From: Candidatus Atabeyarchaeum deiterrae
GTDB taxonomy: Archaea; Asgardarchaeota; Atabeyarchaeia; Atabeyarchaeales; Atabeyarchaeaceae
Assembly: GCA_037310415.1 (NCBI GenBank)
Contig: CP147780.1
Coordinates: 480,001 to 544,000, forward strand
Reading direction: 5' to 3'
Length of the DNA stretch: 64,000 nucleotides
Shown: piece after piece, positions 7,340-25,365 of the stretch
Numbering within the stretch: position 1 is the stretch's first letter
Layout of the letters: each line of letters starts with the position of its first letter
Program-made: the position numbers and the translations under genes
The notes under the pieces: generated by a model
Databases searched by the model: none
The model's input: only the letters and a program-made list of their open reading frames with translations
What the model was told of the DNA's origin: nothing

Positions 7340-7470
7340 GGGCGGGTGATCTAGTCTGGTTATGATGCCACGCTCACACCAATCCAAAAAGGGAGCATAC
7401 CGTGGATGGACAAGCCTCAATCGAGGCTGCTCAACGACTGTCGAGAGTTCGAATCTCTCCCCGCCCACCA
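7340..7470 (+). tRNA. tRNA-Val(CAC) with two introns (anticodon loop ~7378-7399; variable region ~7407-7439); CCA encoded
   Basis: Acceptor GGGCGGG/CCCGCCC-A-CCA, anticodon stem CCACG/CGTGG with CT-CAC-A, T arm GAGAG-TTCGAAT-CTCTC; two insertions with hairpin/BHB-like pairing. Confidence 0.88.
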
Positions 7471-24890: not shown

Positions 24891-25073
24891 GGAATTGTGC
24901 CTGACTTACAGCCTTTGTTTGTCACCACTCTCTTCAGCCACTGACACTCTCGTACCCTTTTTGGTTCACACAATAATAGTGTTTACAGTACAAGCTTTCC
25001 GAAAACCTTAATATTACAAACTATTTCTACAATAGTCTACAACCGTTACCAAATAGTTGTCTCTAGTGGAAGC

Positions 25074-25216
25074 GCCGGGGTAGCTCAGCCAGGTAGAGCA
25101 GCGGGCTGTTAACCCGTCGGTCACACACGTGAGCAACATGTGGACTACAGGTTCGAAAGTCAAGAGGAATCTATATACCTAGTCCTCTGAGACCGGAAAC
25201 CCTGTCCCCGGCGCCA
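25074..25216 (+). tRNA. tRNA-Asn(GTT) with two introns (25125-25148 at 50/51; 25158-25199 at 59/60); CCA encoded
   Basis: GCCGGGG/CCCCGGC-G-CCA acceptor, GCGGG-CT-GTT-AA-CCCGT; both insertions form BHB-type motifs (GGTC/GACT with ACA bulges; TTCG/CGGA with AAA/AAC bulges). Confidence 0.92.
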
Positions 25217-25239: not shown

Positions 25240-25365
25240 GCTCCGGTAGTCTAGTCCGGTCATCCGTCAGGTCCGAAAGGATAGAGGCCCTTCGAGCCTC
25301 CGACGCGGGAAGCCTTGATCCATTCGGATAAGGGCTCGCGAATCCGAATCCCGCCCGGAGCACCA
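25240..25365 (+). tRNA. tRNA-Glu(TTC) with two introns (25263-25277 in the D loop; 25310-25342 at 53/54); C33 and C55; CCA encoded
   Basis: GCTCCGG/CCGGAGC-A-CCA, GAGGC-CC-TTC-GA-GCCTC, GCGGG/CCCGC T stem; BHB-type motif CGCG/CGCG with GGA/AAT bulges. Confidence 0.88.

Follow-up and report, generated by a model that had tools for sequence, protein, structure and literature searches.

Cytidines at Positions 33 and 55 in a Single-copy, Two-intron tRNA-Glu(UUC) Gene of an Atabeyarchaeia Genome and in Other tRNA Genes of Asgard Archaea

Few bases in biology are as strongly conserved as the uridine at position 33 and the uridine or pseudouridine at position 55 of tRNA, because each of them forms a U-turn, the first in the anticodon loop and the second in the T loop. 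In Methanopyrus kandleri, a gene-encoded C8 is reportedly edited to U8 in the tRNA by the enzyme CDAT8, and tRNA genes that carry several introns are said to have been described for the Thermoproteales by Sugahara in 2008. Position 33 itself is a C in tRNA-Cys(GCA) of the Sulfolobales (Wolff et al. 2020, PMC7668247) and in the initiator tRNA of eukaryotes (PMC5041475, PMC9023262), and multi-intron tRNA genes are also on record for the Atabeyarchaeia and Freyarchaeia (PMC11291895; bioRxiv 10.64898/2026.10.13.758758).

The gene that is the subject of the current report lies in a window of 64,000 nucleotides (the whole stretch of DNA that was analysed) from the curated, complete genome of Atabeyarchaeia-2 (here G000), a wetland Asgard archaeon (PMC11291895). 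It specifies a tRNA-Glu(UUC) with C at both position 33 and position 55. As in the tRNA-Cys of the Sulfolobales, which is likewise known from genes, the C33 is encoded in an archaeal elongator tRNA throughout a clade and the product is presumably functional; the two cases differ in the amino acid and the phylum concerned, and in the Sulfolobales only one tRNA is affected and position 55 is unchanged, whereas several tRNAs are affected in the Asgard genomes and the affected set differs between close relatives. The eukaryotic cytoplasmic initiator tRNA-Met (C33, A54/A60) provides another example of a working tRNA that combines a C at the anticodon U-turn with a non-standard T loop, but the initiator binds directly to the P site whereas tRNA-Glu(UUC), as an elongator, has to go by way of the A site. 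In its architecture the gene resembles the multi-intron tRNA genes of the Thermoproteales and of the Atabeyarchaeia and Freyarchaeia, with introns at non-canonical places (the D loop and between positions 53 and 54) and relaxed bulge-helix-bulge motifs.

Read from the sequence, the gene occupies positions 25240-25365 of the window on the forward strand and consists of three exons, two introns and an encoded CCA end, in agreement with ARAGORN when run on the spliced form and with the published tRNAscan-SE entry. The latter (PMC11291895, Supplementary Data 4) places Glu TTC at 505240-505365 with a score of 66.9; it locates one intron, at 505310-505342, and records two as observed. With genome coordinates equal to window coordinates plus 480,000, its gene and intron ends are identical to 25240-25365 and 25310-25342. 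The gene itself is therefore already annotated in a published table. Exon 1 (25240-25262; AGTCCGGTCA) supplies the 5' strand of the acceptor stem, U8, A9, the 5' strand of the D stem and most of the D loop. Exon 2 (25278-25309), which was also recognized by ARAGORN, supplies the end of the D loop (A21), the 3' strand of the D stem, the anticodon arm, the variable loop CGAC and the 5' strand of the T stem, GCGGG. Exon 3 (25343-25365), seen in the same two ways, contains the T loop TCCGAAT, the 3' strands of the T and acceptor stems, A73 and CCA. The acceptor stem is GCTCCGG/CCGGAGC with the discriminator A73, the D stem GTCT/GGAT, the anticodon stem GAGGC/GCCTC (25284-25288 and 25296-25300) and the T stem GCGGG/CCCGC, interrupted after G53 by the second intron.

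The anticodon TTC (25291-25293, as called by ARAGORN on the spliced sequence) is preceded in the loop C-C-T-T-C-G-A (25289-25295) by a C at 25290, where U33 is expected, and the T loop T-C-C-G-A-A-T (25343-25349) has a C at 25344, where U or pseudouridine 55 is expected. The spliced RNA would thus have the anticodon loop CCUUCGA and the T loop UCCGAAU. In silico splicing and ARAGORN yield a 78-nt tRNA-Glu(ttc) with these same loops and with all four stems paired, so that the preliminary description was right about both cytidines, and about the intactness of the stems (all of which are perfect), of the two intron motifs and of the CCA end. Neither ARAGORN nor Rfam called a tRNA in the unspliced DNA.

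Intron 1, of 15 nt (25263-25277), lies in the D loop and has a relaxed bulge-helix-bulge in which, by eye, three of the four positions of the central helix pair. Its boundary is ambiguous by a single A, and excision of 25262-25276 would give the same product. The assignment draws further strength from co-variation of the inner hairpin, which is CC/GG here, CCC/GGG in the Atabeyarchaeia-1 genome (G001) and CTC/GAG in a third genome of the family (G002), and the spliced D loop, AGTCCGGTCAA, is exactly the intronless D loop of the tRNA-Glu(CUC) gene at genome position 668490. This intron was not found by tRNAscan, yet the authors of the genome paper counted two introns in the gene (PMC11291895). 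Intron 2, of 33 nt (25310-25342), lies between G53 and T54, as seen in the sequence, in the minimum free energy fold and in the published tRNAscan-SE intron. It forms, in that fold, an 11-bp hairpin with one mismatch. Its central helix, CGCG/CGCG, lies between the bulges GG^A and AA^T, so that the cuts fall directly 3' of G53 and 5' of T54; the outer helix is weak, giving a bulge-helix-bulge that was read by eye as relaxed. The genome also has two genes for proteins that match the splicing endonuclease family tRNA_int_endo (PF01974; 103.9 and 70.4 bits). With cloverleaf, bulge-helix-bulge motifs and endonuclease all present, the locus is an archaeal intron-containing tRNA gene.

Two other tRNA genes lie in the window, Val(CAC) at 7340-7470 and Asn(GUU) at 25074-25216, and both have U33 and U55, as the preliminary description had said of them. 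The tRNA-Asn(GUU) gene, which is on the forward strand and has two introns of its own, ends 23 nt upstream of the Glu gene, and a TA-rich box, TAATAT, lies between the two. One contig from a peat metatranscriptome matches 25070-25126 exactly, across the 5' exon of the tRNA-Asn gene, and then diverges inside the intron, which indicates that the peat contains a relative whose intron is different. Among the assembled contigs of that metatranscriptome and of three other RNA runs, none covered the tRNA-Glu(UUC) gene.

The possibility that the two cytidines are errors of sequencing or assembly, or that the gene is a pseudogene superseded by another copy, deserves mention, given that the tRNAscan score is just moderate and that the unspliced gene is invisible to two search programs. 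We consider it hardly credible. The assembly is a single contig of 2,756,679 bases (completeness 97.25%, contamination 6.32%) that represents SRVP_Atabeyarchaeota_2_curated.FINAL, which was curated by hand, with validation by long reads (Valentin-Alvarado et al. 2024, PMC11291895). The same two cytidines occur in the independently assembled genome of Atabeyarchaeia-1, which belongs to another genus, and C33 occurs in G002 as well, where the anticodon loop is again CCTTCGA and the T loop is TTCAAAT (U55). The introns of the Atabeyarchaeia-1 orthologue are clearly different from those described above while its exons are the same, and across the family the exons of this gene are conserved while the introns diverge. 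These features, together with the perfect stems and the lack of a redundant copy, led us to dismiss the idea of a tRNA pseudogene. As for a second copy, the genome has complete Glu-type 5' and 3' ends at 505240 and 668490 and nowhere else; the latter is the Glu(CUC) gene, with loops CTCTCGA and TTCGAAT (U33 and U55). Neither this search for end patterns nor the published table, which has a single entry each for Glu TTC and Glu CTC (PMC11291895), revealed a second, canonical tRNA-Glu(UUC) in the genome.

The C33 in the seven-nucleotide anticodon loop is conserved in the orthologues of the related species (G000, G001 and G002). The history of position 55 is less simple. Atabeyarchaeia-1 and G002 are of one genus, and C55 of tRNA-Glu(UUC) occurs in Atabeyarchaeia-2 and Atabeyarchaeia-1 and is absent from G002, so that this position must have changed at least twice. 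Further afield, the tRNA-Glu(UUC) genes of G013, G040, G007 and the Freyarchaeia (the last by our own reading of its intron) have both U33 and U55. The tRNA is evidently needed and used: it is the sole Glu(UUC) species, and GAA outnumbers GAG in 1264 long open reading frames of the Atabeyarchaeia-2 genome (36.0 vs 31.8 per 1000 codons). The suggestion in the preliminary description that it might have a specialised role finds no support here, since the only decoder of a codon used about 36 times per 1000 would have a general role.

Neither substitution is peculiar to tRNA-Glu(UUC). We read the loops of all listed tRNAs, apart from a few with unresolved introns, by way of the published coordinates of three complete genomes, and found C33 in 8 of 121 tRNAs and C55 in 5 of 121 (4-7%). 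Among the 43 tRNAs of Atabeyarchaeia-2, C33 is found in Glu(UUC), in Arg(UCU) (genome 266760-266856, forward strand, loop CCTCTAA) and in Arg(CCU) (genome 569171-569275, reverse strand, loop CCCCTAA), and C55 in Glu(UUC). The 40 tRNAs of Atabeyarchaeia-1 include Glu(UUC), Arg(UCU) and Pro(GGG) with C33, and Glu(UUC) with C55; the Pro(GGG) gene, at 714679-714780, has the loop CCGGGGC where its Atabeyarchaeia-2 orthologue has CTGGGGC. The Freyarchaeia genome (G037, 3,576,204 bases), with 38 tRNAs, has C33 in Arg(UCU) and Gly(UCC) and C55 in Asn(GUU), Ile(GAU) and Lys(CUU), the T loops of which are TCCGAGT, TCCGAAT and TCCGATT, respectively. The two Arg tRNAs of Atabeyarchaeia-2 read AGA and AGG, the most used Arg codons of that genome. 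Its initiator tRNA and its other U34 tRNAs (Lys, Gln and Gly) have U33. In the course of this reading, four entries of the published table appeared to be mislabelled through unrecognised introns: 'Met CAT' at 1545581-1545739 of the Freyarchaeia genome, with its Glu acceptor stem and an intron at 34/35, reads as Glu(CUC), 'Leu CAG' at 2410455-2410592 of Atabeyarchaeia-2 resembles Thr(CGU), and, in Atabeyarchaeia-1, 'Pro TGG' at 808089-808245 reads as Thr(GGU) and 'His GTG' at 366154-366350 resembles Val(GAC).

The survey could be extended to further Asgard genomes for two kinds of loop. C33 of Arg(UCU) also occurs in G002, in G033 (of another family) and in G115 (of a third family), and 14 other genomes have U33 in this tRNA. 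A T-arm pattern with C55 (GYGGG-TCCGAW-TCCCRY) matched 7 tRNA genes in 5 of 151 Asgard genomes and its version with A57 matched 4 further genes in 4 genomes, making 11 matches in 9 of the 151, so that at least 9 of these genomes have C55; reversed control patterns had no match in the same 151 genomes. Nine of the 11 matches read as tRNA genes (for Thr, Lys, Ile, Arg, Ala and Asp), and a tenth is a duplicate Ala gene in G061. Three C55 T arms, those of Arg(CCU), Thr(CGU) and one on G115:C77 that has no amino-acid call, accompany the C33 Arg(UCU) in G115. The first cases of C55 all had TCCGA, and we entertained the idea that C55 requires G57, as in a CCG motif for ac4C; it was given up when four tRNAs with TCCAA appeared. 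In a control Asgard genome, G007, U33 was present in 31 of the 31 tRNAs read and C55 was absent. An exact pattern for the anticodon arm, run on 400 Asgard genomes, matched in four genomes outside the family within coding sequence rather than in tRNAs; the pattern is specific to the stem sequence of Glu(UUC), and is silent on C33 in other lineages.

Some of these substitutions are shared and others are confined to one genome. The C33 of Glu(UUC) and that of Arg(UCU) are common to the whole family. In contrast, C33 of Arg(CCU) was found in Atabeyarchaeia-2 only (G001 and G002 have U33), C33 of Pro(GGG) in Atabeyarchaeia-1 only and C55 of Thr(GGU) in G002 only, and a pattern for the C55 arms of the Freyarchaeia Ile and Lys tRNAs had no match in five further genomes from that genus. 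The cytidines to which the preliminary description drew attention in one tRNA are thus found again in other tRNAs of its own and of related genomes, and Glu(UUC) is not unique. The genome paper (PMC11291895) and the later preprint (bioRxiv 10.64898/2026.10.13.758758) make no mention of C33, U33 or U55 in Asgard tRNAs, and a search of the literature uncovered no report of them; so far as the literature shows, it is new that C33 and C55 recur among the essential tRNAs of several lineages of Asgard archaea.

In the reading that we prefer, and to which we would give a probability of roughly 0.6, the gene specifies a working tRNA that retains both C33 and C55 and that is one product of a recurrent, tolerated flux from U to C in some Asgard lineages. 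The low frequency of the cytidines and the many one-species cases would fit weak purifying selection better than efficient editing of the transcripts. The two cytidines of tRNA-Glu(UUC) are then not a coupled pair, and represent separate instances of the flux at the two positions. The preliminary description had considered two chance hits at exactly the U-turn bases unlikely, an argument that has lost most of its weight. The tRNA-Glu(UUC) of G002, with C33 and U55, demonstrates that the two changes are separable, the C55 of that genome being in the Thr tRNA named above, and with the frequencies of C33 and C55 given for the three complete genomes one double hit is unremarkable: ~0.3 would be expected by chance, against one independent case observed. 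Coupling of C33 and C55 within a tRNA is not significant, and was set aside.

At the level of whole genomes the two substitutions might be less independent. All 6 of the genomes with C33 in Arg(UCU) carry a tRNA with C55 (4 by the T-arm pattern, and G000 and G001 by virtue of their Glu gene, which is split by introns), and the pattern for C55 was found in 0 of 11 genomes with U33 from the same BLAST list, against a base rate of 9 in 151. Counted by lineage, the association of C33 in Arg(UCU) with C55 is 4 of 4, a count limited by kinship and by small numbers. The converse does not follow: Arg(UCU) has U33 in G061, G166 and G316, three genomes with C55 for which C33 had been predicted, so that the association is one-way only. 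Such co-occurrence, which counts against the preferred reading, is suggestive of a factor at the level of the lineage, and that factor could be an unrecognised enzyme instead of weak selection. The strong constraint on U33 elsewhere, as in the tRNAs of G007, speaks against that reading as well.

One rival reading is that of the preliminary description, a system of C-to-U editing. An unrecognised enzyme that deaminates the second base of seven-nucleotide hairpin loops would restore U33 and U55 after transcription and leave the genomic state free to drift between T and C. It would account for the fact that both deviant sites are changed from U to C at the same relative position of their loops and in the same lineages, and for the flips between T and C among close relatives in Arg(CCU), Pro(GGG) and Thr(GGU); the CDAT8 enzyme of Methanopyrus would be a precedent, in that there, as here, an archaeal gene has C at an otherwise invariant U where homologous tRNAs have U. 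CDAT8, however, consists of a cytidine-deaminase domain fused to THUMP and acts at position 8 rather than in hairpin loops, and most tRNAs of M. kandleri carry C8, whereas 4-7% of tRNAs carry C in the genomes described here. If C were neutral at the edited sites, far more tRNAs might be expected to have it.

The gene content of Atabeyarchaeia-2 also argues against editing of this kind. Searches of the complete genome with the profiles PF00383 (dCMP_cyt_deam_1) and PF14437 (MafB19-deam) gave no match at E<=0.01, while both families were detected in 12 of 14 control genomes, and a six-frame scan for the canonical zinc motif of the cytidine-deaminase fold, H/C-A-E...P-C-x-x-C, found no instance of it apart from two degenerate matches in short frames. 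Domains of the RibD or dCMP-deaminase type also seem to be missing from the genome. The search for a deaminase-THUMP protein turned up four THUMP proteins, namely ThiI, an RMKL-type methyltransferase and two small THUMP-only proteins (2169267-2169866, reverse strand, 199 aa; 446375-446911, reverse strand, 178 aa); none of them has a deaminase domain, and an enzyme like CDAT8 is therefore absent. Editing at C33 and C55 is thus not supported by what the genome appears to encode, although a deaminase of unknown fold would evade these searches.

Evidence of a different sort comes from introns that pair with position 33. In the splicing helix of the Arg(UCU) precursor the base that faces position 33 is G in the four lineages with C33 in which the helix could be read, among them the Atabeyarchaeia family, G033 and the Freyarchaeia genome G037, and it is A in both of the U33 genes whose helix was read, those of G022 and G065. 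This co-variation implies that the pre-tRNA carries C33 and has been selected as such, and it speaks against editing. The Arg(CCU) intron of Atabeyarchaeia-2 still has A opposite C33, which is more in keeping with editing. Position 55, for its part, also varies in a way that editing could not repair, as the T loop TGCAAAT of a tRNA-Cys(GCA) gene in G007 (G007:C16:11213-11284) has G55 instead of U55. On balance we regard C-to-U editing as distinctly unlikely.

A further alternative is that the cytidines are retained in the RNA because they were selected to make the tRNAs poor substrates for an enzyme that requires U. The enzyme in question might be a toxin, from a mobile element or a competitor, that cuts tRNA, or else the Elp3 modifier of wobble uridines in the case of C33, or the pseudouridine-55 synthases in the case of C55. 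Glu(UUC) and Arg tRNAs are among the classes attacked by known anticodon nucleases, and several of the affected tRNAs belong to such classes; moreover, the affected set changes quickly between relatives, as it would in an arms race, and Elp3 was found in Atabeyarchaeia-2 and in all five of the relatives tested. (The same result disposes of the notion that loss of Elp3 had relaxed the need for U33.) Against an adaptive origin, no nuclease or toxin was identified in the present analysis, C33 occurs also in the tRNAs Arg(CCU) and Pro(GGG), which do not have U34, and the Lys, Gln and Gly tRNAs of Atabeyarchaeia-2, which do, keep U33. The gamma-toxin of K. lactis, which we had considered as a precedent for escape from a nuclease, was dropped from consideration, since the U33C change had no effect on its cleavage of the Glu anticodon stem-loop in vitro (PMC2275089). 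Adaptive change of this sort strikes us as improbable.

It is also conceivable, if doubtful, that C is acceptable at both U-turns because of an undescribed factor common to the Atabeyarchaeia, the Freyarchaeia and the lineages to which G033 and G115 belong; this would explain why C33 and C55 are found in the same genomes. Such a factor could be an enzyme of new fold that edits C to U or otherwise modifies C at the second base of seven-nucleotide loops, or it could reside in altered ribosomes or altered proteins that handle tRNA.

Returning to the reading that we prefer, in which a working tRNA keeps its cytidines, the course of events might be as follows. The gene would be transcribed, and a splicing endonuclease, probably of the heteromeric type given its two genes, would remove both introns. 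The mature tRNA most likely retains C33 and C55, as judged from the genomic evidence, and would function with them, C being perhaps the least disruptive replacement for U in a U-turn. It would have no pseudouridine at position 55, and C33 might also deprive it of the Elp3-type modification of U34, because replacement of U33 by C has been reported to abolish the activation of human (eukaryotic) Elongator. The underlying flux would touch a few per cent of the tRNAs in some intron-rich Asgard lineages, and the changes, of which some are shared by a family and many are confined to one species, seem to be tolerated as nearly neutral to mildly deleterious. Candidate reasons for this tolerance are weak selection in the intron-rich lineages, escape from an enzyme, for example a tRNA nuclease, that depends on U, and a factor of the lineage as outlined above.

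Whatever the reason, an essential, single-copy elongator tRNA for a much-used codon lacks both U33 and U55, and these substitutions are found repeatedly in other tRNAs of the group of archaea that is nearest to the eukaryotes. If the mature tRNA keeps its cytidines, it would offer a natural test of how much departure from the U-turn rule the ribosome can accommodate, of how a tRNA behaves without pseudouridine 55 and of how Elp3 handles a U34 tRNA with C33; if the cytidines are converted to U, a new kind of tRNA editing that operates without a known deaminase would be implied. In either case, the tools that find and score tRNA genes penalise genes of this kind, which makes the under-annotation of tRNAs in Asgard archaea worse.
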